From the sequence record OP617741.1: a stretch of DNA of 64,000 nucleotides, one strand, 5' to 3'. The stretch is from Klebsiella phage KP13-16. Under the pieces are notes generated by a model. That model was not told the origin of the DNA. It searched no databases and was given only the letters and a program-made list of their open reading frames with translations. Positions 3,361 to 55,871 of this stretch are shown here, one piece after another (position 1 is the first letter of the stretch; each line of letters starts with the position of its first letter). A program made the translations under genes and the position numbers.

Positions 3361-5481
3361 TTAAACCCTTATATGTTTTACACGTTGAACAACTTCCTGC
3401 ATCTTCCCCTTGTTAAAAGGTCTACTGTTAGGTGCAGATAAGTAACCTGAGACTCTCCGAATGACGTTGATCGTTCCTTCCTCAGTATTGCCACAATCAG
3501 GGCATTCAAAGCCTTCTGCTGTTGCTTTAAACTCTCCATGAAAGCCACACTTCAGACATTTATCAACAGGTTGATTAATCCCAAAGTAATGAATATTTTC
3601 ATATCCATAGTCAATCAAAGCTTCCAAGCCTTTCATGTTATTTTTGAGATTTGGTGTCTCGACATAACCTATATTACCACCTGAACTGATAAAGTCAAAC
3701 CCTGATTCAACATCCCATTTAGTAAAAGGATCAACTTGTTGGTCTACAGGAACATGGAAAGAGTTAGTCAAGTATTCTCTCTTGATAGTTCCAGGAAATT
3801 TCGCATTGATTTTACTGGCAAATTTATAACACAAAGACTCCGCTGGAGTTCCGTAGATACCAAAACCAATACCTGTTTTCTTCTTATAAGCCTCTGCCAT
3901 TTCTGACATAAGACTTAAAATCTTTTTCCCGTAAGCTTTATATTCCTCTAAACTACAATTTGGATAGAGAATTTGAATTGCTTCATATAACCCTACATAA
4001 CCAAAACTTGCTGAAGCATAACCTTTGTAGAAAAGTTTGTCAATAGTTTCTTCAGGATCTAGTCTAGCTAATGCTCCTTCAACAAACATCACAGGATTTT
4101 GTTTTGCTTTAGTTCCCTTAAGGCGATTAATCCTCAACATATGTGCTTCATATGCTGTTTGCATATGCTTATAGAGTTCTTCCAGGAAAAGTTTACCACT
4201 ACTGACAGAATCTTTAGCTATCATTGGTAAATTCAAAGAAACTACACCAAGATTAAATCTACCATCATATTTCTCACCTTGTTCTGTAGCAAAATAAGAA
4301 AGGAAACTACGACATCCCATGCTAGTAACGTGACCTTTTGAAGATTTTGTAACCAGTTTATTTCTAGGGACTGAAATAAAATCTGGGTAAATTCTTTCTG
4401 CACAACACTCCATTGCTAATTGTTTAAGGTCATAATTAGGATCACCAGGATTCATGTTGACACCTTCTTCAAGGAAGAAAATTACTTTTGGGAACACAGG
4501 CGTTACTTTATCCTTACCTAAACCCTCTTTGTGGATTTTTAGATAGTTACGAGTAATCATTCTACCAAATTCTGAGGTATCTAAACCAAGACTAATGGTG
4601 ATAAATGGAGATTGTCCATTTACACTCATTAATGTGTTAACCTGGTAGATAAGAGTTTGCATTGCATCGTAGACATCTTGCTCTGTAAGTTGCATTGCAT
4701 TTATTTTGACTTCAGCACCAAATAAATTTCTAATAAGTTTTACATTTTTATTATAAGTCAGTTCTACATATTGCTTTAAACCTGTATCAATATGTGCGCA
4801 AGTTTGTCCACCATATTGGCTAGAGGCTACAGCCTGAATAATTTGTGTCAACACTGTAGTAGCAACACCAATTGATTTAGGTTTTTCAATGAAAGCATTT
4901 CCAATATGGAAACCATTTTCTAACATGTCTTGGTAATTAACGAGACAACAGTTGCTGAGAGGGCTGATTAGATAATCTAAGTCATGAATATGTCCAAAAC
5001 CGCTTGTATGCCATTCTGAGAGGTCTTTAGGTAGTATTTGAGTCAATGCTACATGCTTACTTAAAATCCCTGCTAAGAGGTCTCTATGAGTATTTACAAC
5101 GTTACTGGGTTTGTTAGCATTCTCACGAGTAAATTCTTCTGCTGTTTGTTCTAAGAAGCCAGATATGTCATTATAAAGTTTCCCATTACCTTCACGGATT
5201 TTATCTCTGTCGTGCCTATACTCAATATAAGTTCTGGCTATGTCATATGTCTTTGGATTAGACATAAGGAAATCTTCAATCATTTTTTGAACATTTGAGA
5301 CTGACTTATTCTCATTGAGATTTTTAACAATATATTCTGTAACCTCGTGAGCAACAAGTTCTGCTGTGATTGATAATGAAGAGTTAGCTAGTGCTGCTTG
5401 ATATATTGCATTGTAAACTTTACGTTCATCAAATTGTTCTGTGCGCCCGTCGCGTTTTATAATTTTATGTTGATACTGCAT
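3361..5481 (-). CDS. nrdD: anaerobic ribonucleoside-triphosphate reductase (class III RNR)
   Basis: Approx 706 aa; C-terminal glycyl-radical motif RRVSGYL and Zn-ribbon CxxC...CxxC; start at MQYQHK after GGAGGAATA RBS. Confidence 0.95.
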   Translation of the reverse strand: MQYQHKIIKRDGRTEQFDERKVYNAIYQAALANSSLSITAELVAHEVTEYIVKNLNENKSVSNVQKMIEDFLMSNPKTYDIARTYIEYRHDRDKIREGNGKLYNDISGFLEQTAEEFTRENANKPSNVVNTHRDLLAGILSKHVALTQILPKDLSEWHTSGFGHIHDLDYLISPLSNCCLVNYQDMLENGFHIGNAFIEKPKSIGVATTVLTQIIQAVASSQYGGQTCAHIDTGLKQYVELTYNKNVKLIRNLFGAEVKINAMQLTEQDVYDAMQTLIYQVNTLMSVNGQSPFITISLGLDTSEFGRMITRNYLKIHKEGLGKDKVTPVFPKVIFFLEEGVNMNPGDPNYDLKQLAMECCAERIYPDFISVPRNKLVTKSSKGHVTSMGCRSFLSYFATEQGEKYDGRFNLGVVSLNLPMIAKDSVSSGKLFLEELYKHMQTAYEAHMLRINRLKGTKAKQNPVMFVEGALARLDPEETIDKLFYKGYASASFGYVGLYEAIQILYPNCSLEEYKAYGKKILSLMSEMAEAYKKKTGIGFGIYGTPAESLCYKFASKINAKFPGTIKREYLTNSFHVPVDQQVDPFTKWDVESGFDFISSGGNIGYVETPNLKNNMKGLEALIDYGYENIHYFGINQPVDKCLKCGFHGEFKATAEGFECPDCGNTEEGTINVIRRVSGYLSAPNSRPFNKGKMQEVVQRVKHIRV

Positions 5482-5565
5482 TATTCCTCCAAAATAAGAA
5501 GCCAGCATTAACTGGCTTAAAAGTAGATCCTTATTTTAGCTTTTATTCTGGTTTCAAATCTTGAT

Positions 5566-5973: not shown

Positions 5974-6605
5974 TAATATTCTCCTATTCCACAATAAAGA
6001 GTTTCTCTTGTATTATTTAAATCTTCAGAAACTCTATTAATTTCTTTTTGTAAGATATCCTTATACTGAGGATATTTTTCTATCAAAGTTAAACCTTGAT
6101 TTATATACAACATTTGCCAAGCTCTATGTGCTTCAACAGGATCTGTGAAACCATGTATGGCAATATCATGAAACCTAGCCCTATATCGAGGTACTTTCTG
6201 ATATTTATTTTTCTGTTCAGAAACTCCCAATGGTAAATTATTTTTAGAGTATCTTTTTATAATATAATTATTTAAATCTTTACCTACAAAACCACAGGTG
6301 CTTGGAGAGTATATTTTACTAACCCCAGATAAGAGATCCTTGTCCAGTTCCTTTCCTTCCCAATCTTGGGTTTCCATCCAGGCACGAAAATTACCAAATG
6401 TCAACCATTCTTCACAAACACTACAACCTTTATAAGTAGGAAATCTTCTTTGGTAATTTTCACTATAACAACGCCTTAGCATATTCGTCCAACGATCATA
6501 ATATGGATCTCGCCAAAATACAACTTCTTTACCATTCATACGTTTACTTTTTTGAGTTATATCTTCTAGATCATTGTATCCCTTACCAAAAAGTAATTTA
6601 TTCAT
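5973..6605 (-). CDS. putative homing-endonuclease-like / AP2-type DNA-binding protein (paralog A)
   Basis: Shares W..ML.RCY, C.V.EEW..F.NF..W, LPLGVS, AH..WQ, NRETL blocks with ORF 10999-11661. Confidence 0.5.
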   Translation of the reverse strand: MNKLLFGKGYNDLEDITQKSKRMNGKEVVFWRDPYYDRWTNMLRRCYSENYQRRFPTYKGCSVCEEWLTFGNFRAWMETQDWEGKELDKDLLSGVSKIYSPSTCGFVGKDLNNYIIKRYSKNNLPLGVSEQKNKYQKVPRYRARFHDIAIHGFTDPVEAHRAWQMLYINQGLTLIEKYPQYKDILQKEINRVSEDLNNTRETLYCGIGEY

Positions 6606-7894
6606 TACAATTCTATCTCAAGTAAGTAATCAAGTCTAACTTGACTCAGGTCAAAGACTACAATCTCATCATTTCTCACCCCAGAGTATCCAGCCTTAGC
6701 CCAATAAGATTGGTATCCTTTTGGAGGGCGTTGACTTGTTGGTCCTGTTGGGGTATAAGCATTTCCAACAGCCACTGAAACTAGAAACATGTAAACTTTT
6801 CCATTCCCCTGACCACCACCCGTATAATACATGTTATCACAATATTGGAGACTTTTTGAAGATTGATTTGCGAAATACAATCCTGTTGAGAACATGGCCC
6901 CTGCCTTAACACCAGGACTATCTTTAGGCATCATTAACCCTTTACAGAAAATAGATAACAAATTAGCTACACGTGTTCCGTGCCACAGTTCATGAACATT
7001 ACCATACTCTGTGATAGCTTTATCAAATGGTGCTTGCTGATTTCCAAGATTAATTTTATAGATATTCTTAACTTTAGAACCCATGATGCGACCGCCGTGT
7101 TGGGCATTTTTACTTTCATTGTAGTAATTAACAATACGATCAATTGTAGCAGAATCTTCAACATGAGAGATACCAAAATTAAAGATTTTTTCTACTTCAA
7201 CTTCTTCTTTAGGTTTATCTTCCTGATTCTTTTTAAGTTCTTCAATAAGGTCTAATGTTTCCAGAAGTGCTTTACAGATTTCACGTTGTTCGTCAATGTT
7301 TTTGTGACTAAACAGCAAGTGACGTTTATCACGTGTAGTTGCAACTTTATTAGGAATAAGAACAAAATAAGAATCATTTAAAGTTAAGATCTCATCTTCA
7401 CCTTTACCACTCTTTTCATATTCATCCAAAAGGGATTCAATATTACCAAGATGGATCATTGCTTCTTCCACAGCAGCTTTCTTTACAACTCCTAAAGGAG
7501 TCTTAAACAGACCATCTTTTTCATCATATTTAATGTTAGTAGAACTGGTGATATTATGGATGTTTGCTTTAGCAATTGCTTGAATAAGATTACGACTTGT
7601 GTCGTCTTTACAATCAATTTGCTTAAGTGCAATGTCTACTACGTTAACTTTTTGAGTCAACCCAGTTTCACCAGAGACAGCTTCTAGTTGTGCTTCTTTA
7701 TAACCTTTCTTGATTTTAGATGCAACAAGACTGTCAAACTTCTTTTTACCACCAGAGTAGGAGGTAGTTTGAACCCCGCCACCTACCCGACCAAAACGAA
7801 CTGCAATATTTCCAACGTCATCTAAGGTTGCTTCATAGAATTTATTGTTATTATTCTTTGAATCAAACATGATTAGCATTTTACTCTCAGACAT
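6605..7894 (-). CDS. WGR-domain poly/mono-ADP-ribose polymerase (PARP)-like protein
   Basis: N-terminal KFYEA...RFGRVGGGVQ...KKGYKE matches WGR consensus; LWHGTR...GAMFSTGLYFANQSSKSLQYC matches the PARP1 H-G-S / Y-Y block and a later NDEIVVFD glutamate; RBS GGGGGTGAA. Confidence 0.85.
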   Translation of the reverse strand: MSESKMLIMFDSKNNNNKFYEATLDDVGNIAVRFGRVGGGVQTTSYSGGKKKFDSLVASKIKKGYKEAQLEAVSGETGLTQKVNVVDIALKQIDCKDDTSRNLIQAIAKANIHNITSSTNIKYDEKDGLFKTPLGVVKKAAVEEAMIHLGNIESLLDEYEKSGKGEDEILTLNDSYFVLIPNKVATTRDKRHLLFSHKNIDEQREICKALLETLDLIEELKKNQEDKPKEEVEVEKIFNFGISHVEDSATIDRIVNYYNESKNAQHGGRIMGSKVKNIYKINLGNQQAPFDKAITEYGNVHELWHGTRVANLLSIFCKGLMMPKDSPGVKAGAMFSTGLYFANQSSKSLQYCDNMYYTGGGQGNGKVYMFLVSVAVGNAYTPTGPTSQRPPKGYQSYWAKAGYSGVRNDEIVVFDLSQVRLDYLLEIEL

Positions 7895-20518: not shown

Positions 20519-21871
20519 ATGAGTAAAGAATTTGTTATTGAGACTGTATTAAATACATTTAAATATGAAAAAGCTCTTTTCAAAGAGTGTAATATGATGA
20601 TTGCAGGCGGTGTTTTTACTTCCCTTTTTACCAAGAAAGAAGTAAATGATGTTGATTGCTATTTTCGATCTAAAGCTGATCTTGTTCGCTTTCTGAATTA
20701 TATTTCTGAGTACGGCGATAATCGTTTTTGTATCTCTATTACTGATAAATCTGTGACGTTGGTTGGTGGAAGTGTACCAATTCAATTGATCTATTTTAAG
20801 TATTTTGAAGATCTTCAAGATGTTTTCAACACTTTTGACTTCACAATCTCAATGTGTGGATATGATTTCAAAACTGAAAAACTAGAATATCATCCTGATT
20901 TCTTTAGTGATTTATCACAACGCCGTCTGAGTTTTAATAAAAATACAGCATATCCTTTGGTTAGTGCTTTACGTGTAAATAAATTTAAAGATCGTGGGTA
21001 TCAGATTTCTCGTAGTGAAATGATTAAGCTTCTTTTAACTGTTTCACAGCTTGAAATTAAAACACCCCGCCAGTTTATTGAGCAGATTGGTGGTTTCTAT
21101 GGCAACAGTGCTTTGGCTGCGCTTTCCAAACTGGATGATAAAGATTTTGATCTTGAAAAAGGTCTGAAGGTCTTGCATGAATCTTCTGAAGGAAGTAACC
21201 CAGAAATCAATAAAGTTATTTCTAAACCTAACGAATCTAAGCTTGCTGTTCATCAACTTGCTCGCTTGATTGATTCAGATAATCCATTAGAGGGTGGTTG
21301 GTATCGAGAAGATAATGTGGCCTATTATAAATCTAAATATGGTCGTCATAGTATTCCTTTGGATATTGCTTTGCTGTTTGCACCTCAAAATGAAGTCTTT
21401 GAAAATGTAAACCCAGAAGAGCCTACTAGTGGAATGTTTTATAAATGGGTGCATAAAACAGAGAATCCAAATATCTTTAAATCTATTCACCGAGATTCTT
21501 TCTTATACGAACTGGGTAAAGATGCCGTAGATGAGCAATCTGGCTTATTCTTCTGCAAGGATACAGATATTAAAGACCACTACTTTGCAAATCGTGAAGG
21601 CGTTGTTATGTTGATGTGTCTTGCAGAAATTAAAGATCGAACGGCTCACAGATCTAATGAACTTCGTTTCACTAAGGTTAAAGTTCTGAGTGTTGTTAAT
21701 GAGCCTTATGTCAAATCTCCTGACCTGTCTACTGTAGATATTAGTAGTAAATTTAATATCAAAGTCTCAGAGAATCATTGTCGAAATGAAGAACTGGATT
21801 TGGAAGATTTGCCTGAAGAAAATGAAGGGAGTACTGTTGAACCCCTCAGTGTAACCGGACCAGTGTTTTGA
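20519..21871 (+). CDS. Pol-beta-superfamily nucleotidyltransferase-like protein
   Basis: IAGGVFTSLFTKKEVNDVDCYF fits hG[GS]-x(9-13)-DhD; downstream FDFTISM provides third acidic residue. Confidence 0.45.
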   Translation: MSKEFVIETVLNTFKYEKALFKECNMMIAGGVFTSLFTKKEVNDVDCYFRSKADLVRFLNYISEYGDNRFCISITDKSVTLVGGSVPIQLIYFKYFEDLQDVFNTFDFTISMCGYDFKTEKLEYHPDFFSDLSQRRLSFNKNTAYPLVSALRVNKFKDRGYQISRSEMIKLLLTVSQLEIKTPRQFIEQIGGFYGNSALAALSKLDDKDFDLEKGLKVLHESSEGSNPEINKVISKPNESKLAVHQLARLIDSDNPLEGGWYREDNVAYYKSKYGRHSIPLDIALLFAPQNEVFENVNPEEPTSGMFYKWVHKTENPNIFKSIHRDSFLYELGKDAVDEQSGLFFCKDTDIKDHYFANREGVVMLMCLAEIKDRTAHRSNELRFTKVKVLSVVNEPYVKSPDLSTVDISSKFNIKVSENHCRNEELDLEDLPEENEGSTVEPLSVTGPVF

Positions 21872-25005: not shown

Positions 25006-25244
25006 AAGTTATTATTACAGCAGAGGCACGTGTTCATCTTTCTAAAATTGTAGAAATGAGTGAAGAAGATTATGAAAAATATAAAGAAATTGTTGTTGAT
25101 TCTACGGGTTTAACTTATAGAGAAATAGATCAAGAGATTGCAAAACTCGCAGATAAATATGATTTTGGTTATGGTGACGATATAGAGGACATGGAAGACC
25201 CGGAAGAGGTTACTTTTCAGGTTTTTAAAGAGGGTTCAAATTGA
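25002..25244 (+). CDS. hypothetical acidic protein
   Basis: ATGA-coupled. Confidence 0.45.
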   Translation: MKVIITAEARVHLSKIVEMSEEDYEKYKEIVVDSTGLTYREIDQEIAKLADKYDFGYGDDIEDMEDPEEVTFQVFKEGSN

Positions 25245-28200
25245 AAAAATTTTCACCTACAAAAGAGCAAAAAGAATCTTTAAATGTTTTTGAAATTGAA
25301 CAGATTCTAAAGATTTCAGCAAAGGCTGGTACAGGTAAGGCCCAACCACTCACAGCAGTAGTAAAAACCCCAAACGGGGATGTAGAATTAGGAAAAATTA
25401 ATATTGGAGATTCTGTATTTAGAAAAGATGGCAGTATTGGTAAAGTAACAGGAGTTTTTCCTCAAGATGGACTTCAACCAACATATAAAGTAACGTTTCG
25501 AGATGGATCTAGTACAGAATGTAATGGTGAGCACATTTGGAGTGTATATGGAGGGAAATATAAGGATAAAATTGTTAACAGAACTTTAAATGAAATGCTT
25601 GAAAAAGGCTTATATAATTCTCTGGGAGATATGAAGTATAAGATTCCTATGGCAGAACCAGTCCAATATCAAACAAAAGCCTTTGATATTGATCCATATG
25701 TTTTAGGAGTTTTAATTGGTGATGGCTATCTTTGTGGAACAACACCAGCGTTTAGTGTAGGAGAAAAAGATAAAGAAATCTTAGAGTTGGTTCAAAAAAT
25801 TTATCCAAATTGGATTTATGGGAAACATATTACAGGTAAAAATTGTATCCAGTATAGTATCTCAGAGCCAACGAAAGGTAGAGTAAATAATATTAAAAAT
25901 AAAATAGAAAATCTTGGTTTAAATGTAAAATCAAGCTTTAAATTTATACCTAATGAGTATTTATATGGAGATGTCCGCCAAAGAATCCAATTACTTAGAG
26001 GGTTAATGGATACAGATGGAAGTTGCGTTAAAAATAGAACAAGTTTTACATCAACATCAAAAAACTTAATATTAGACTTAAAGACTCTTGTTCAAAGTCT
26101 TGGTGGAACAGCCATTGAAACTTATGTAGATGTGAGGAGTGAAAATTCATGTTATACATTGAATATTAAAACTCCAATGTGTCCTTTTAAGGTTAAAAGT
26201 AAAGCTTCACTTTGGACTAAAAGCAGTAAAAATCCTCCATCAAGATATATCAAGAGTGTTGAGTATGTAGGTGAAAAAGAACAAGTCTGTATCTCCGTTG
26301 ACAGCGATGACCAATTATATTTAACAGATGAGTTTATTGTTACACATAATACATCAACACTTAAATTTATTGCTGAATCTCATCCTGAGTTGACTTTCTT
26401 ATATGTAGCTTTTAATAAGAGTATGGCAAACGATGCAGCCAAGAAGTTCCCAGATAACGTGCATGTTATGACCATTCATTCACTGGCATATCGTAACATT
26501 GGTAAGCACTATGCTCATAAATTGACTCGCCCAACTGGTCGTTATATTAATATGGCTGGGACAGGATCTGAGATTGCACAACATTACGGTATTTTTGATA
26601 TGAAAGACCATAATGGGGCGGTCTTGACTAAAAATTATCTTGGATTAATTGTAAAAGATACAGTTAATACTTTTGAAAGGTCTGATAAAGATAAAATTAC
26701 AGAATTTCATATTCCTAAGTTCCATATGGATGATGTCAAACGTCGATTTGCTCTTAAAGAATCTAAAGTTAAAAAGGAAATTTTGAGTGTTGCTAAAAAA
26801 CTTTGGGAAGATCGTTGTGACAAAGAGGAACGAATCCTTTGCACACATGATACTTATCTAAAACTGTATCAGATGAGTAAACCTAAGTTTGAAACTTATG
26901 ACTGTGTTCTGATTGACGAAGCACAGGATACTAGTGATGTAATGATTTCACTTTTCTCTAATATTAAACCTAAAATCGTCTATGTTGGTGATAAACACCA
27001 ATGTGTTTCTGGAGAAACTGTACTTGAGACACCTTGTGGTAATAAGCTTATGCAAGATCTTTCCATAGGAGATGAAGTAAAATCTTACAGAAACGGTCAA
27101 CAAGTCTATCGTAGAGTGTTGAATAAAACTTTATCAAATCGTACAGAAGGATTAAGTGTTGCTACTCGGAATGGTAATATCCTAGATATGACACTAAATC
27201 ATAAAATTTGGGCTACCAGTTTTAATTTACAAGAAAAACAGATGATTGTATATCTTATGTGGAGAAAAGACCTTGGATTCCGTGTTGGTATTACCAATAA
27301 GATAAAAGATAGTTATGGTAATATTAGTTTTGGTCAGAGAACTTTACATGAACGTGCACAAAAATTTTGGATTCTAGATGTTGTAGCTAATCGTGAGGAA
27401 GCTCTTGAAAAAGAACTTACATATAGCTTACAGTATGGTATCCCAATGTGCGTATATGAAGCAAAATCACGAGGTCTGAATCAAGATCGTATTAATAACA
27501 TTTTTAAAATTTTTGGCAAAAATGGTTTCATTTTATTATCAGAAAAAGATTACTCTTTTGAATACCCGCATTGGCACAATATCAATTCACGCTCAGTTAA
27601 CCGTAAAATGTTAACAGTACATTTGACAGCACATTGTGTCAAAGGTAGCCAAGTTTCTTTTGAGTGGACAGAGGAAGACATGCCAATTACTTCTACTTTA
27701 GAAGATGCTGGAATTAAAGTTACATATGCTAAAAAGAGTGGAAGATTTCGTGTACGTAAATGGTTTAGTAGCTACATTGAAGCATTAGAGTTTTCTAATG
27801 ATATTTGTGATTTAGTACCTTATGCATCAATTACAGAGCGAATGGCCTACACATCTGAGCACAAGTTAAATTTATTACCTGCGGCTTGTCTGTTTGAAGG
27901 GATGTCTGTACTAATAGATGATGGATGTGGAAATACTGTAATAGATGAGATTATCTCTATTACCCCACATAAAGGTGAGTATTTTGATATTGAAGTAGAA
28001 GATACTGCTAATTTCTTTGGTAATGGAATTCTTAGCCATAACTGCATTTACGGTTGGCGTGGATCAGTTAACGCTATGGAGAAAATCAGTGCACCAGAAG
28101 TTAAATTAACTCAATCATTCCGATTTGGTAAAGATATTGCAGATGTAGCAAAATTGATTATTGATGAAGAGGTAACAGGACTGGAATCTATTAAGTCAAT

Positions 28201-28837
28201 TGTTGGTGAGATTGATCCTAATAAGCCTTATACTGTCCTTTATCGTAAGAATGTGACCTTAATTTTTGAAGCACTTGAGATGATTGCAAGAGGTGAGAAA
28301 ATCTTCCTGAATATTGATGTAAGGGACTTTGTCTCTATGCTCGAATCTGCTCTATATCTTCACAATAAACAAATTAAGAAGGTTAAACATGAGCTTATTG
28401 TACCATACGCAACATGGGGAGATTTAGTCAATGAAGCACAATCTGATCCAAGTATGGGTAAACTCGTTAAAATTGTCCAGGAAGGTCGTGCTCAAGAAGT
28501 TATCAACAATTTAAACTTTAGTGAAAAGAGTGAAGCGACTGCTGATGTTATTTTGACAACTAGCCATAAAGCGAAGGGTCTTGAATGGGATCAGGTTGTC
28601 CTTGCAGATGATTTTAAGTCTTGTTATGACAGTAAAGGTAAACTTCAGAAAGTTGACCAAGAAGAAGATAACCTACTTTATGTAGCTTGTACTCGTGCAC
28701 GTAAAGTCCTGAAACCAAACAGTGTTGTTGAAGAAAAATTTCTGTTAAAAGGAATCCCTATCCCTTATAAAATTGCACATTTTGGTGTAGGCGATAGTGA
28801 AAGTATTGACCAATTTTTTGTTACTGAGGAGCAATAA
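25241..28837 (+). CDS. UvrD/Rep-like SF1 DNA helicase precursor containing two inteins
   Basis: Extein motifs: I AGTGK|T(STL), Ia TIHSLA, II VLIDEAQDT, III VGDKHQ|CIYGWRGS, IV LTQSFRF, V TSHKAKGLEWD, VI YVACTRARKVL; the two | positions are interrupted by intein-like inserts. Confidence 0.85.
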   Translation: MKKFSPTKEQKESLNVFEIEQILKISAKAGTGKAQPLTAVVKTPNGDVELGKINIGDSVFRKDGSIGKVTGVFPQDGLQPTYKVTFRDGSSTECNGEHIWSVYGGKYKDKIVNRTLNEMLEKGLYNSLGDMKYKIPMAEPVQYQTKAFDIDPYVLGVLIGDGYLCGTTPAFSVGEKDKEILELVQKIYPNWIYGKHITGKNCIQYSISEPTKGRVNNIKNKIENLGLNVKSSFKFIPNEYLYGDVRQRIQLLRGLMDTDGSCVKNRTSFTSTSKNLILDLKTLVQSLGGTAIETYVDVRSENSCYTLNIKTPMCPFKVKSKASLWTKSSKNPPSRYIKSVEYVGEKEQVCISVDSDDQLYLTDEFIVTHNTSTLKFIAESHPELTFLYVAFNKSMANDAAKKFPDNVHVMTIHSLAYRNIGKHYAHKLTRPTGRYINMAGTGSEIAQHYGIFDMKDHNGAVLTKNYLGLIVKDTVNTFERSDKDKITEFHIPKFHMDDVKRRFALKESKVKKEILSVAKKLWEDRCDKEERILCTHDTYLKLYQMSKPKFETYDCVLIDEAQDTSDVMISLFSNIKPKIVYVGDKHQCVSGETVLETPCGNKLMQDLSIGDEVKSYRNGQQVYRRVLNKTLSNRTEGLSVATRNGNILDMTLNHKIWATSFNLQEKQMIVYLMWRKDLGFRVGITNKIKDSYGNISFGQRTLHERAQKFWILDVVANREEALEKELTYSLQYGIPMCVYEAKSRGLNQDRINNIFKIFGKNGFILLSEKDYSFEYPHWHNINSRSVNRKMLTVHLTAHCVKGSQVSFEWTEEDMPITSTLEDAGIKVTYAKKSGRFRVRKWFSSYIEALEFSNDICDLVPYASITERMAYTSEHKLNLLPAACLFEGMSVLIDDGCGNTVIDEIISITPHKGEYFDIEVEDTANFFGNGILSHNCIYGWRGSVNAMEKISAPEVKLTQSFRFGKDIADVAKLIIDEEVTGLESIKSIVGEIDPNKPYTVLYRKNVTLIFEALEMIARGEKIFLNIDVRDFVSMLESALYLHNKQIKKVKHELIVPYATWGDLVNEAQSDPSMGKLVKIVQEGRAQEVINNLNFSEKSEATADVILTTSHKAKGLEWDQVVLADDFKSCYDSKGKLQKVDQEEDNLLYVACTRARKVLKPNSVVEEKFLLKGIPIPYKIAHFGVGDSESIDQFFVTEEQ
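25340..26350 (+). mobile_element. intein 1 (337 aa) with LAGLIDADG homing endonuclease domain, inserted in helicase P-loop
   Basis: Hint block A-like start AQPLTAVVKTPNG, LGVLIGDGYL and LLRGLMDTDGSC LAGLIDADG motifs, terminal IVTHN followed by Thr+1; begins with Ala not Cys/Ser. Confidence 0.7.
27002..28042 (+). mobile_element. intein 2 (347 aa) inserted in helicase motif III
   Basis: Starts CVSGETVLE (Cys1), block B TLNH, ends FFGNGILSHN followed by Cys+1; removal restores VGDKHQCIYGWRGS. Confidence 0.7.
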
Positions 28838-30951: not shown

Positions 30952-31035
30952 TTTCTGGTTCACATCATACCCATGTTTTTATCCAGGCAGTTTCTTGGGA
31001 ATATCTCTAAGTGAGAATGGTTCTCATTTGAGAAG

Positions 31036-31057
31036 TTGAATGATAATCATTCTCATT
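31036..31057. promoter_or_regulatory. Fur-box-like operator TTGAATGATAATCATTCTCATT
   Basis: Contains AATGATAATCATT, the central 13-mer of the Fur consensus GATAATGATAATCATTATC; 17-mer identical to 38855-38871. Confidence 0.45.
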
Positions 31058-31080
31058 TATAAAACGAAATAAGACTCATT

Positions 31081-31343
31081 CGCATTTGCGGAATGACGGG
31101 CAGGTTCGGTGTTTGTCTCGCGATTCCCGTTACCCCTCGCCATGTAGAAATAATAACATAACCAACACTAGGATCAAGCGTCTTTACATTTCTTTACAAA
31201 ACTATTCAAGGCGAGCTACCGGCGATTCACCTTCCGACCTGGCCCCCGCGCCTGGTACGTTAGCCCCGCCTTTTCGCCGTGGGGTGGCGTGTCCTCTTCT
31301 TTATGGATACATTATGCCCCATTCCCTGGGGCGTGTCAACACA
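31081..31343 (+). ncRNA. candidate structured non-coding RNA (GC-rich, no credible ORF)
   Basis: About 60 percent GC segment downstream of two tandem promoters; only a compositionally implausible ORF. Confidence 0.25.
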
Positions 31344-31553
31344 TTAAACACCATATTTGATAAAATCCCTGGCGGCTTGTGTAGGCTGATATTCTACGCC
31401 GTAAGCGTCATCCACCTGCACAAGAAAACCTTTCTTAATCAAGCCCGTTATTGCCCGGCGAGCTGCTGTATAACTGGTGAAATGTGAATCATTGCTAAAA
31501 GTGAAACCGTGTTTAATAGCTATTTCAAGAGTGAGTTTTTCTGTTTTGGTCAT
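31344..31553 (-). CDS. small putative winged-helix DNA-binding protein
   Basis: 69 aa, RBS GAGGA; flanked by 11-bp direct repeats TGGCGGCTTGT. Confidence 0.45.
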   Translation of the reverse strand: MTKTEKLTLEIAIKHGFTFSNDSHFTSYTAARRAITGLIKKGFLVQVDDAYGVEYQPTQAARDFIKYGV

Positions 31554-31655
31554 TGTCCGATCCTCGTTATGCCTCCACCGTGGCGGCTTGTTAATTACTA
31601 TATACTAATGAAGGGAAAACGCAAGCGAAAAATTTAGAAAAATATTTGCATCCAA

Positions 31656-31685
31656 GTATTGACGGGAAGATCAAGAGGGACTATT
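31656..31685 (+). promoter_or_regulatory. sigma70 promoter TTGACG-17-TATTAT
   Basis: Seen directly, upstream of 31751 ORF. Confidence 0.45.
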
Positions 31686-31750
31686 ATTCACTACACAAGG
31701 CGAGGCGATAGGCGCACCGTGAGAGCAACGATAACCAGGAAGAAAAGAAA

Positions 31751-52428: not shown

Positions 52429-53529
52429 TTAATCAAATTTCAATTTAGATAAAAAGTCTTCTGTGACATTAGTATCTAAACTACCAGTTAAATATGAATC
52501 TAATTCCCTTTCTTGTGGTGTAACCTGCACCATATTTGAATTAAGATAACTACTAATCCAGCTTATTGGGTTTCTTGTAGTTTGGAATGGTAATTCTAAC
52601 CCTACTGCTCGTGCTCTTTGTTCTGCGATATATTCAACATAATTTTTAAGGATCTGCGAGTTTAAACCAATCAGAGAACCATCCTTAAATAAATAATCTG
52701 CCCAATCTTTTTCTTGATTAACACATTCTAAGAATAGTGCTTCACATTCTTCTTTATGATCTTCAGCAACACGTGCCATTAAATCACCTTCATTACCATT
52801 CTGGAATTGTTTGATGATATACTGAGTTCCAGATAGATGCAGTGCTTCATCACGAGCAATAAGTTTGATGATACTCGCATTACCTGTCATTAAACGTAGC
52901 TGATCAAATGCAAAAGAGCAAGCAAAGCTGACGTAGAATCGAATAGCCTCAAGTGCGTTAACAGAGTGCATACAAAGATACAGTGCTCTAGCATGTGTAT
53001 ATGGATCTACTTTATCACCATACTCTTTTTTAATGTTAAGCTTGTACAGAGTATCATATGCTTCAGATACAGATTTTGCCCTAGCCATAATCTCTTTAGA
53101 TGTCAAAATATTATCAAGGATTTCTGTTGGATTTGGGAAAGCATTTCTCAGAATATGAGTGTAACTTCTTGCATGAATTGTTTCACTAAATGTCCAAGTT
53201 TCAATCCAGTTTTCAAGGGCTGGGTCAGAGACAATTGGTAGGAATACCGCATTTGGTCCACGTCCTTGAATACTATCTAAGAGTGTTTGATATTGCAAGT
53301 TCGATGTGAAGATGTGCTTTTCATGTGCTTCAAGACTTTTAAAATCTGATGCATCCTTTGAAACGTTAATCTCCTCCGGTCGCCAGAAAAAACCTAGTTG
53401 CTTGGTTGTAAGCTTTTCAAATTTTGGGTGGCGTTGCTGGTCAAATCTGGCAACGTTTACTGATTCACCAAAGAACATTGGTTGTTTCATAAAATCAAAG
53501 GTATTTTTATTAAATGCTGTGAAACTCAA
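52429..53529 (-). CDS. nrdB: ribonucleotide reductase small subunit (class Ia beta)
   Basis: KQPMFFGESVNVARFDQQ matches E. coli NrdB N-terminus; probable TTG start after GGGAG. Confidence 0.9.
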   Translation of the reverse strand: MSFTAFNKNTFDFMKQPMFFGESVNVARFDQQRHPKFEKLTTKQLGFFWRPEEINVSKDASDFKSLEAHEKHIFTSNLQYQTLLDSIQGRGPNAVFLPIVSDPALENWIETWTFSETIHARSYTHILRNAFPNPTEILDNILTSKEIMARAKSVSEAYDTLYKLNIKKEYGDKVDPYTHARALYLCMHSVNALEAIRFYVSFACSFAFDQLRLMTGNASIIKLIARDEALHLSGTQYIIKQFQNGNEGDLMARVAEDHKEECEALFLECVNQEKDWADYLFKDGSLIGLNSQILKNYVEYIAEQRARAVGLELPFQTTRNPISWISSYLNSNMVQVTPQERELDSYLTGSLDTNVTEDFLSKLKFD

Positions 53530-53547
53530 TTTTATCTCCCATAATAT

Positions 53548-53563
53548 GCCCACCGAAGTGGGC
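53548..53563 (-). other. UUCG-tetraloop hairpin GCCCAC uucg GUGGGC in nrdA-nrdB intergenic region
   Basis: Seen directly. Confidence 0.4.
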
Positions 53564-53573
53564 TTTTAAAAAT

Positions 53574-55871
53574 TTAAATCGCACAAGAATCACAATGTTC
53601 AGGTTCTTGAGGTTTAGTCTCTTCTGAAGGTTTGCTTACCTCTTGTTTTTCTTCTTGGATATTCCCGTCCTCAGTTTCATGATAATAGAGTGTCTTAATA
53701 CCATGAGCTTTAGCAAAAACAATATCCTTAATAATCACAGCAAGTGGAAGTTTACTATCTTTAAAAGTATGTGGTTTGTAAGGAGTATTTGTTGAGATTG
53801 ATTGGTCAACAAATTTTTGCATAATTGCTGCTAGTTCAAGATATGATCTACAGCTATGCATATCCCATTTGTACTCATACACATCTTTCAGTTTAGAGAC
53901 TTCTGGAACAAGCTGTTTAACCGTCCCACTCTTACTGGATTTAAACGACAGTGCAGATCTTGGTGGTTCGATACCATTTGTTGCATTGCTTACTTGTGAG
54001 CTTGATTCTGATGGCATTAATGCACTAAGTGTACAGTTCCTTAAACCATGAACCTTAATCTCCTCTCGTAATGCATCCCAATCTAACTGTAATTCAGCAT
54101 CATGTAAGTTGTCAACCTTTTTCACATAACGATCTACAGGCATCACACCATCAAAGTAAGTTGTCTTATCAAATTCTTTAGCTGCACCACGCTCTTTAGC
54201 TAGTTCCAATGACGCAGTAAGTAATGCATATTGAATCTTTTCAAATAATTCATGGGTTACTGTTTTAGCTTTTCTGTCAGAGTAACGCAAACCTTTTTTA
54301 GCTAAGAAGTATGCGTAGTTGATAACACCAACGCCAAGATTTCGCCAGTCTTTTCCTTTTTCAGCAGCTTTAACAGGATAATTCTGGTAGTCTAGGAGGT
54401 TATCCAATGCTCTGACAATAATCTTAGCCAAGCGAAGAATTTCTTCATATTTATCTACTTCACCAAGGTTAAATGCTGCTAATGTACATGTTGAAACTAA
54501 TCCATCACCTTCATAAATATTATTCATTGGTGAGGTAGGCAATGTGATTTCTACACACAAATTAGACTGTTTAATCGGAGCTTTATATTTATTGAAAGGA
54601 CCAGTGTCATTAACTGTGTCAACATTCATAATATAAATTCTTCCTGTTTGAGATCGTTCCAGTAAGAGATTTTTCCAAGCTTCAAATGCTGGCATGGTTT
54701 TCTTCTTCACATTAGGATCATTTTCAAGTTGAACATAAAGTTGTTCAAATTTATCCTGATCTTCAAAGAACAGTTTGTAAAGTTCACCATTTGCCACATT
54801 AGGATGGAAGAAACTGATATTACCATTTTCTTGTAAGCGTTTATACATTAAACGGTTTACTTGAACAGTATAATCTACATGTCTTGCACGTGTCTCCTCT
54901 GTACCTCTGTTATTTTTAAGTACTACCAGACTTTCATAATCCCAGTGCCACATTGGATAGAAATAGTTGGCACTACCTTTACGCAGACCTCCCTGACTAA
55001 CCCAACCAAGTGATTCTTGGAACATCCTGATGATAGGTACCAATCCAGAGTGTACAGTGCTGCCACCTCGTACAGGAGCACCATCCCCACGAATCATTCC
55101 TACATTAAGACCAATACCTGCACGTTGTGCTGAGTAGAAACCTTGCGCAGTGTTAGCATTGAAGATTTGGTCAATTGTATCACCAGCTTCAATAAGAACA
55201 CAACTACTAAACTGTCTTGTTGGTGTACGAACACCTGCGATAATTGGTGTTGGCAATGAAATAAGATTCTGAGAGGTCGCTTGGTAGAAATCTACAATAT
55301 GTTTTAAACGTTCCTCTTTAGAACAGGTCTCTTTAGAGTGGAGACACATACCTACTAACATAAAAGCCATCTGAGGTGTCTCAAAGACTGTACCTGTGAT
55401 CTTATCTTGAACCAAATATTTATCTTGGAAAGCACGAGAAGCAGCATATGCATACTCAAAATCTTGTTCATGATTAATTTTTGAATCTAGATAATTAAAC
55501 TCTTCCTCTGTAAAATCTAAGATAATTTCTTGATCATATTTACCAAGATTAATCATTTCAGTTACATGGTCAAAAAGACTTGGTGGTGTAAATGTTCCAT
55601 AAGCTTCTTTTCGTAATTTAAACATTAAAAGTCGTGCAGCTACATACTGATAATCAGGTTGTTCTACAGAGATCAGGTCTGCTGCACTTTTAATAATTGT
55701 TTCATGAATATTTTTGGTGGAGATACCATCGTAAATAGATAATTTGGCATTCATTGCGATGTCAGAGGCACATACATCTAAATCTTCACATGCCCACTCA
55801 ATTACTTGATTTATCTTTTCAGCAGAGAAAAGTTCTGTACTTCCATTTGATTTTACTACAGAGTTAATCAA
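53574..55871 (-). CDS. nrdA: ribonucleotide reductase large subunit (class Ia alpha)
   Basis: 765 aa, ATP-cone N-terminus, NrdA-like catalytic Cys blocks. Confidence 0.95.
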   Translation of the reverse strand: MINSVVKSNGSTELFSAEKINQVIEWACEDLDVCASDIAMNAKLSIYDGISTKNIHETIIKSAADLISVEQPDYQYVAARLLMFKLRKEAYGTFTPPSLFDHVTEMINLGKYDQEIILDFTEEEFNYLDSKINHEQDFEYAYAASRAFQDKYLVQDKITGTVFETPQMAFMLVGMCLHSKETCSKEERLKHIVDFYQATSQNLISLPTPIIAGVRTPTRQFSSCVLIEAGDTIDQIFNANTAQGFYSAQRAGIGLNVGMIRGDGAPVRGGSTVHSGLVPIIRMFQESLGWVSQGGLRKGSANYFYPMWHWDYESLVVLKNNRGTEETRARHVDYTVQVNRLMYKRLQENGNISFFHPNVANGELYKLFFEDQDKFEQLYVQLENDPNVKKKTMPAFEAWKNLLLERSQTGRIYIMNVDTVNDTGPFNKYKAPIKQSNLCVEITLPTSPMNNIYEGDGLVSTCTLAAFNLGEVDKYEEILRLAKIIVRALDNLLDYQNYPVKAAEKGKDWRNLGVGVINYAYFLAKKGLRYSDRKAKTVTHELFEKIQYALLTASLELAKERGAAKEFDKTTYFDGVMPVDRYVKKVDNLHDAELQLDWDALREEIKVHGLRNCTLSALMPSESSSQVSNATNGIEPPRSALSFKSSKSGTVKQLVPEVSKLKDVYEYKWDMHSCRSYLELAAIMQKFVDQSISTNTPYKPHTFKDSKLPLAVIIKDIVFAKAHGIKTLYYHETEDGNIQEEKQEVSKPSEETKPQEPEHCDSCAI

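Follow-up and report, generated by a model that had tools for sequence, protein, structure and literature searches.

The gene at 25241-28837 (+) in a stretch of 64,000 nucleotides from Klebsiella phage KP13-16 (OP617741.1), here called the window, was analysed. Judged from its sequence, it very probably encodes a UvrD/Rep-like superfamily 1 (SF1) helicase of a Stephanstirmvirinae-like Klebsiella/Escherichia myophage, which was invaded by two unrelated mobile inteins. In all likelihood both insertions are splicing-competent. The original prediction had described a UvrD-like helicase split by two inteins at this place, and both insertions were confirmed within one open reading frame (ORF) on the plus strand. 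The ORF codes for a precursor of 1198 amino acids with a calculated mass of 136.0 kDa; it starts with TTG, in overlap with the stop codon of the gene upstream. Pfam matches of the precursor were found for UvrD-helicase, UvrD_C, Hint, Intein_splicing and LAGLIDADG_3.

The closest homologue is the 'putative DNA helicase' of Klebsiella phage vB_KpM_FBKp34 (Stephanstirmvirinae; MW394390, gp073), from which both insertions are precisely absent; other homologues lack one or the other. The precursor gene matches the FBKp34 gene in three pieces with about 98% identity. After excision in silico of nucleotides 25340-26350 and 27002-28042 (residues 34-370 and 588-934) a gene of 1545 nucleotides was left. 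It aligned to the FBKp34 gene, also of 1545 nucleotides, with zero gaps and 36 mismatches (97.7% identity). Because this alignment is free of gaps, the residue boundaries proposed originally are exact. The predicted ligated product has 514 amino acids and a calculated mass of 58.6 kDa. Upon splicing in silico the Pfam UvrD-helicase score (PF00580) increased from 37.7 to 68.9 bits, and positions 3-259 of the 271 in the profile were covered continuously. The spliced sequence also matched PF13361 (47.8 bits) and phrog_1967, 'DNA helicase' (E 4.9e-124). The closest solved relative in the PDB sequence search was F-box DNA helicase 1 (E 1.4e-33).

Motifs I, Ia, II, III, IV, V and VI follow each other in order, and profiles of both the N- and the C-terminal UvrD domain match, as is characteristic for UvrD/Rep-like SF1 helicases. 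The N-extein (25241-25339, +; residues 1-33) is colinear with FBKp34 gp073 and ends halfway through the Walker A motif, at AGTGK (residues 29-33). TSTL (371-374), TIHSLA (411-416), DEAQD (559-563) and VGDKHQ (582-587), the first half of motif III, are located in the middle extein (26351-27001, +; residues 371-587). The C-extein (28043-28837, +; residues 935-1198 and the stop codon) matches Pfam UvrD_C and contains CIYGWRGS (935-942), LTQSFRF (956-962), TSHKAKGLEWD (1107-1117) and YVACTRARKVL (1147-1157). Every motif listed in the original prediction was found at its place and in order, and the insertion sites are motif I (P-loop) and motif III, as it had claimed. An alignment of the insertions to ordinary helicase subdomains in homologues, named there as counterevidence, was looked for and did not occur.

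Chance is not a viable source of this observation, given the ungapped match over 1545 nucleotides and the gain in Pfam score. Introns were rejected, since the insertions are in frame, translated and carry Hint folds. An assembly artefact was rejected as well: the identical 1198-residue protein was detected by exact look-up on two assembled contigs, one of them a Logan contig of 137,268 nucleotides (SRR21837335), and independent alleles of each intein exist elsewhere. Besides their precise absence from FBKp34, both insertions have the Hint fold with blocks A, B, F and G, and end with His-Asn followed by a nucleophilic +1 residue (THN/T in intein 1 and SHN/C in intein 2; a slash marks the splice junction).

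Intein 1 (25340-26350, +; 337 amino acids, 37.7 kDa) interrupts the P-loop between GK and T. Class 3 inteins are defined by the lack of a nucleophile at position 1 and by a WCT triplet at positions B12, F4 and G5; the 'classic' P-loop insertion lies between the invariant Lys and Thr (PMC5050341, PMC6195587). The residues of intein 1 place it in class 3: Ala1, the triplet Trp67-Cys317-Thr335, the His-Asn end and Thr+1. The description as an intein needs this qualification, as intein 1 is not canonical, i.e. not initiated by Cys or Ser. The following counts refer to an alignment of 112 family members (111 for the C-terminal end). Position 1 is occupied by Ala (62), Glu (34), Gln (8), Ser (6) or Pro (2). 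Invariant are His65 (B10), Trp67 (B12), Cys317 (F4), Thr335 (G5), His336 (G6) and Asn337 (G7). Block B contains His65-Ile-Trp67 (25532-25540, +), where His and Trp, the latter being the W of the triplet, are kept in 112/112. In block F, QVCIS (26282-26296, +), the predicted branch-forming nucleophile of class 3 is Cys317 (protein residue 350; 112/112). Block G and the C-terminal junction, IVTHN/T (26336-26353, +), comprise Thr335, His336, Asn337 and the Thr+1 of the P-loop. THN is invariant in 111/111 members, the +1 residue after it being Thr (97) or Ser (14). In 97/111 the intein comes directly after Gly-Lys. Furthermore, a second cysteine of block B, Cys61 (25520-25522; protein residue 94), four residues before His65, is conserved in 95/112 class 3 P-loop inteins of this family.

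Intein 1 contains two LAGLIDADG motifs, both with an acidic residue. The Asp of motif 1, LGVLIGDGY (25703-25729, +), is kept in 99/112 relatives, and the second Asp of MDTDG in motif 2, LRGLMDTDGS (25994-26023, +), in 107/112. Motif 2 lies within the Pfam LAGLIDADG_3 match on intein residues 216-260 (E 1.1e-7; 32.5 bits at a cut-off of 22.5 bits). The N-terminal part matches the sequence of the gp41-1 intein structure (E 2.9e-8). Allelic inteins at the identical GK/T site were found in Vibrio phage 424E50-1 and in two further proteins (P0002, P0003). Other hosts of the family are PhoH, RecD-like, Snf2, FtsH, ClpB-like, cobaltochelatase-like and terminase ATPases. PHROG terminase and helicase-loader families containing class 3 P-loop inteins match intein 1 with E values from 1e-43 to 1e-16.

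Intein 2 (27002-28042, +; 347 amino acids, 39.7 kDa) is inserted in motif III (GDKHQ/CIYGWRGS) and is, from its splicing residues, a class 1 intein. It has Cys1, the block B motif TxxH as TLNH (27191-27202, +), block F YFDIEV with the block F Asp (27980-27997, +), and block G with the C-terminal junction NGILSHN/C (28022-28045, +). Block F lies inside the C-terminal part, whose AlphaFold2 (AF2) model matches solved Hint domains. At the junction Cys+1 stands in place of the Ala of the intein-less allele. Among the 114 family members listed, nearly all have Cys1, and the +1 residue is Ser or Cys.

The 136-kDa precursor would be unable to bind or hydrolyse ATP normally until both inteins excise, because intein 1 splits Walker A (GK/T) and intein 2 splits motif III. 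Both excisions would be needed for the helicase of 514 residues and 58.6 kDa. In intein 1, Cys317 of block F is expected to attack the Lys33-Ala34 bond under formation of a branched thioester. The N-extein would then be handed to Thr+1, Asn337 would cyclise, and an O-to-N shift would restore the P-loop. For intein 2 the predicted route starts with an N-S shift at Cys1, followed by trans-thioesterification of the N-extein to Cys+1, cyclisation of the terminal Asn and an S-N shift restoring the peptide bond. During co-infection a homing nuclease would cut the intein-less allele of a related phage, into which the intein would be copied by recombinational repair. In intein 1 the LAGLIDADG domain would act as this nuclease, in intein 2 a domain outside the classified families, perhaps GIY-YIG-like.

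The two sites are occupied differently in related phages. Neither intein is present in FBKp34 (AGTGKTSTL; DKHQ/AIYGWRGS). Intein 2 alone was found on a Logan contig of 143 kb (P0001; protein 97% identical, intact P-loop), from which intein 1 is absent, and at the same site in the phi92/PaulScherrer group (intein 60% identical). P0002, P0003 and Vibrio phage 424E50-1 possess intein 1 alone (GK/AQP...THN/T) with an intact motif III. Both are present in the window. Two inteins in one phage helicase had been called unusual, and this holds for the allele as such: none of the records among 50,697 phage genomes covers at least 80% of the double-intein precursor, and a search of 5.8 billion proteins gave no near-identical protein with both inteins among the matches listed. 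It does not hold for the arrangement in metagenomes, since at least two intein N-terminal domains were detected in 48 of the 240 relatives retrieved. P0161 and P0183 (GK/AQP... and GDDRQ/CV...) have the same pair of sites in P-loop and motif III. Other arrangements were also observed. P0057 (1189 amino acids) has a Glu-initial P-loop intein and a LAGLIDADG intein in motif II (DE/C...HN/CQD), and P0128-P0133 are giant UvrD-like helicases of 1841-2536 amino acids with at least two inteins, some of them at motifs II and III.

The DNA of intein 2 (27002-28042) was compared with that of an intein-2-only phage (L005 6751-7791; ERR11473079). Only 25 of 1041 positions differ (2.4%), compared with 133 of 1440 in the exteins (9.2%; Fisher p 4e-13 for total mismatches). 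At third codon positions the divergence is 4.0% in intein 2 and 24.0% in the exteins. The exteins of the window are closest to those of the intein-less FBKp34 (96-98%). At junction 2 the window shares only CAA/.../TGC with L005 and follows FBKp34 from the next codon outward; the empty site of FBKp34 is CAG/GCA with Ala at +1. The shared tract thus ends within one codon of each splice junction. The intein is far less diverged than the exteins, which indicates recent transfer. Such a pattern would result if intein 2 had lately entered an FBKp34-like allele, with co-conversion reaching about one codon on either side and carrying along the Cys+1 codon needed for splicing. The helicase gene is mosaic at its 3' end too: the C-terminus in L005 (8200-8742, compared with 28500-28837 of the window) is different and 52 amino acids longer, and identity is about 80% over the last 150 nucleotides compared.

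The original prediction had seen active homing elements in this genome. For intein 2 this agrees with the sequence evidence above, whereas for intein 1 it is backed by intact endonuclease motifs alone. Several points weigh against the picture of two spliced and mobile inteins as a whole. Splicing, nuclease activity and homing are inferred, as are the sites of cleavage and the fold of the insert of intein 2. The closest relative of intein 1 is about 52% identical in the best local alignment, which includes intein and extein, and 47.5% identical over the intein alone among phage genomes. As no closer copy than these 47-52% exists, recent mobility of intein 1 cannot be judged. In addition, local recombination over a longer stretch, and not nuclease-driven homing, might account for part of the lower divergence of intein 2. 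The ends of the tract, within one codon of each junction, speak against such recombination.

The central insert of intein 2 (27206-27940, +; intein residues 69-313) is a putative homing nuclease. No match of these 245 residues was found in Pfam, PHROGs, NCBIfam or the PDB sequences, and the window copy remained without a Pfam match even at E values up to 10. When 25 relatives of the insert were compared with Pfam, one matched PF01541 (E 0.034) and one T5orf172 (E 0.059). The PDB sequence search with a profile of 25 relatives gave a chance match alone, a nicotinamidase (E 0.48). GIY-YIG membership could not be detected by sequence profiles (Pfam, PHROGs, hhalign). The hhalign comparison was not significant with a shallow alignment of I-TevI relatives, nor with an alignment of 15 I-TevI-family sequences from 12 phage loci (P 0.064, probability below 1%). 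In this latter, non-significant alignment 'FRVG' falls on 'YIG' and Glu138 on the catalytic Glu.

The exhaustive representative search gave 545 clusters of insert relatives at 50% identity. The family size is taken from this search, as a word-indexed protein search with intein 2 found only 6 proteins and missed known relatives. Nearly all relatives are located at GDxxQ/[CS]IYxFRGA of UvrD/PcrA/AddA-like helicases and some at motif II. A genome-contig scan with a 6-sequence alignment identified 15 bacterial loci in metagenome-assembled genomes of Nitrospira, Patescibacteria, Chloroflexota, Armatimonadota, Actinomycetes and Gammaproteobacteria; the same kind of scan gave no match with the single intein 2 protein as query. 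A BFVD entry named 'adenine specific DNA methyltransferase' also contains a domain of the intein 2 type.

The domain-only model of the insert reached a predicted local distance difference test (pLDDT) score of 90.3. It shows an N-terminal beta-beta-alpha-beta-alpha unit, followed by a helical linker and a second alpha/beta sub-domain. Tyr84, Arg94, Gly96, Arg113, Glu117 and Glu138 in the first unit are near-invariant among about 125 relatives. Tyr84, Arg113 and Glu138 (97-98% conserved) seem to be placed on the matching elements of the model. The best non-Hint structure matches included GIY-YIG domains, i.e. the catalytic domain of I-TevI (1LN0) and the N-terminal domain of UvrC (1YCZ). The apparent likeness comprises the beta-beta-alpha-beta-alpha order, a Tyr in strand 1, a Gly ending strand 2, an Arg in helix 1 and a Glu in helix 2. 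Three independent GIY-YIG structures were among the weak structural matches, and the GIY-YIG entries had the highest sequence identities in the lists. With Foldseek, about ten GIY-YIG or NUMOD homing endonucleases were found among viral models, with probabilities up to 0.98 but E values of about 0.03. We take the GIY-YIG-like fold of the model as a lead and not as membership, the resemblance being weak. GIY-YIG enzymes were stated as not known in inteins (PMC1564403, PMC2677866); a preprint of 2025 names GIY-YIG in passing among intein-associated nucleases. A description of the intein 2 nuclease domain was not found in the literature, although only open-access papers were covered and this absence is no proof.

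Four stand-alone relatives of intein 2 (P0122, P0123, P0125 and P0126) start inside the N-terminal Hint region. They have kept the central domain but have neither Cys1 nor the terminal His-Asn. P0123 (L022 1943-2929) lies 48 nucleotides downstream of an intact UvrD-like helicase gene for 489 amino acids (L022 425-1894), whose motif III reads VGDCNQ/AIYSFRGAD with Ala at the would-be +1 position. P0126 (L021 194-1270) follows the 3' end of a UvrD-like helicase gene (L021 2-181) after 12 nucleotides. These two contigs are divergent, and on both an uninterrupted helicase is found beside the free-standing copy. P0123 and P0126 have the appearance of stand-alone homing nucleases derived from an intein, comparable to yeast HO. 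A splicing-dead copy beside the target gene of the intein is expected for a homing nuclease and hard to explain for a purely structural insert. We tentatively suggest, slightly short of an even chance, that the insert represents a widespread, undescribed family of intein-associated homing nucleases, possibly a very divergent GIY-YIG derivative, which is specialised on SF1 helicase motifs II/III and has free-standing, splicing-dead derivatives.

Other explanations have to be considered. The insertions could be lineage-specific accessory helicase domains kept in the mature protein, since SF1 helicases tolerate large insertions such as the 1B and 2B sub-domains and the middle of intein 2 is without family assignment. 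The precise absence from FBKp34 and the match of the intein 2 model to Hint domains effectively refute this idea, which we regard as extremely improbable. Somewhat less remote, yet highly unlikely, is that one or both inteins are decayed and non-splicing, leaving a helicase pseudogene or an inactive protein. Intein 1 has no close relative by which purifying selection would be measurable, and Ala at +1 of the empty allele means that the site is not always splice-compatible. Against decay, the frame is open over 3.6 kb in a genome of 35% GC, and every residue invariant in the 112 relatives of intein 1 or the about 125 of the intein 2 insert is kept. Furthermore, Cys+1 is present where splicing needs it, and the identical protein occurs on two assembled contigs.

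It was also considered that the inteins are kept as conditional switches, e.g. by redox-sensitive splicing that times helicase activation, besides or instead of selfish homing. A precedent exists in the DnaB of Mycobacterium smegmatis, where oxidative stress leads to a disulfide at the catalytic Cys of a class 3 intein in the P-loop (PMC6195587). The second cysteine of intein 1, Cys61, and the use of Cys1 and Cys+1 by intein 2 would suit such a role. However, near-identical phages have neither intein (FBKp34) or only one (P0001), and hence neither is required. Both inteins contain full-size nuclease domains, typical of mobile and not of domesticated inteins, and the divergence pattern of intein 2 indicates recent transfer. 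A switch function is thus improbable. Unlikely, but with a more noticeable share of the probability, is that the insert of intein 2 is no nuclease but a DNA-binding or structural remnant, and that the intein spread by general recombination or by other phage nucleases. This disagrees with the conservation of the domain over 545 clusters with invariant Tyr, Arg and Glu in the beta-beta-alpha-beta-alpha unit, and with the weak structural matches, which include three GIY-YIG structures and about ten phage endonucleases of the GIY-YIG type. It also disagrees with the free-standing copies, which keep the insert domain without the splicing residues and adjoin intact helicase genes, and with an exchanged tract that stops at the splice junctions. 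The presence of two mobile, splicing-competent inteins is therefore the preferred interpretation.

Elsewhere in the window, no inteins were found in the 10 ORFs next in size, three of which are ribonucleotide reductase genes. Ribonucleotide reductase genes are classic hosts of inteins and introns. Here, NrdD (3361-5508, -) and the two class I genes (52429-53553, -, and 53574-55871, -), which encode a large and a small subunit, gave uninterrupted domain matches and no Hint or endonuclease match. Neither Rfam families, e.g. group I introns, nor tRNAs were detected anywhere in the window. In FBKp34 an HNH endonuclease gene (L001 9222-9728) directly follows a cytosine methyltransferase gene and is succeeded by a 'putative DNA methylase' fragment of 114 nucleotides; at the corresponding place of the window (30577 onward) no ORF of at least 100 amino acids occurs before 31086. 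This suggests that, besides the inteins, a second homing-type element, the HNH gene, is present in one of the two phages and absent from the other. A peak of about 45% GC, compared with 35.5% in the whole window, was found at 31000-31750. It contains no long ORF on the plus strand, and an ORF for 69 amino acids (31344-31553, -) within it is also called on the Logan contig. A protein of 429 amino acids (6605-7894, -) has WGR (PF05406), PARP regulatory (PF02877) and PARP catalytic (PF00644, E 3.6e-23) domains. For the 450-residue ORF at 20519-21871 (+) no Pfam match was obtained at E values up to 0.001, and its syntenic ORF of equal length in L005 (1327-2679) has a precomputed match to PF26128 (Gad2).

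Inteins targeting the ATPase motifs of phage replication and repair proteins are known biology. UvrD inteins were catalogued with 16 bacterial cases (PMC4760082). A paper of 2024 still stated that inteins had not been reported from coliphages (PMC11162368); in comparison with this, inteins appear under-recognised in the annotation of enterobacterial phages. The alleles described here, with zero, one and two inteins at 89-98% nucleotide identity, belong to culturable Klebsiella/Escherichia phage lineages. Such natural alleles would make homing, co-conversion and the fitness cost of inteins directly measurable in mixed infections. Co-conversion is of special relevance, as the Ala-to-Cys codon at +1 must travel with intein 2. 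The combination of class 3 and class 1 in one polypeptide would be useful for studies on the splicing order and for orthogonal protein-engineering tools. Moreover, the relatives of the intein 2 insert (545 clusters) suggest a large family of intein nucleases outside Pfam, PHROGs and PDB. If the family is indeed an undescribed one of nucleases, the phage of the window would be an isolatable system with empty, single and double alleles for this nuclease and for splicing by two classes.

Both types of intein are known, and what is new in the double-intein allele is their combination. For intein 2 the nearest known systems are the helicases of Justusliebigvirus, gp198 of phi92, annotated only as helicase, and bas60_0082 of Escherichia phage PaulScherrer ('intein-containing UvrD / Rep family helicase precursor'). 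They share the Stephanstirmvirinae context and the same point of motif III (GDEFQ/C...SHN/CIYQFRGS). Their inteins have 347 amino acids as intein 2 and the same unclassified central domain, with 60% identity. In contrast to the gene of the window, they have an intact P-loop and a single intein, and their exteins are about 48% identical to those of the window. Intein 1 resembles the class 3 'classic P-loop' inteins (PMC5050341), e.g. TerL1-a of mycobacteriophages and the Bethlehem DnaB family, with PhoH, Snf2, RecD-like and terminase hosts. Like intein 1 these have no nucleophile at position 1, the WCT triplet, the Lys/Thr or Lys/Ser site in Walker A and a LAGLIDADG nuclease. Intein 1 differs by its host, a UvrD-like helicase of an enterobacterial myophage, its closest alleles being 47-52% identical (Vibrio phage 424E50-1, P0002/P0003).

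Among the systems studied, the nearest in design is DnaB of M. smegmatis with DnaBi1, a class 3 intein in the P-loop, and DnaBi2, a class 1 intein bearing an endonuclease (PMC6195587). In both systems a class 3 Walker A intein with a hydroxyl +1 residue of the P-loop is combined with a class 1 endonuclease intein in a second motif. The positions of His65 and Trp67, landmarks of class 3, agree between DnaBi1 and intein 1, a likeness by layout. The second Cys of DnaBi1 forms a redox-sensitive disulfide with the catalytic Cys (PMC6195587). DnaB differs from the helicase of the window as a RecA-fold hexameric replicative helicase of bacteria; DnaBi1 is a mini-intein without nuclease, and the second intein is located in motif H4.

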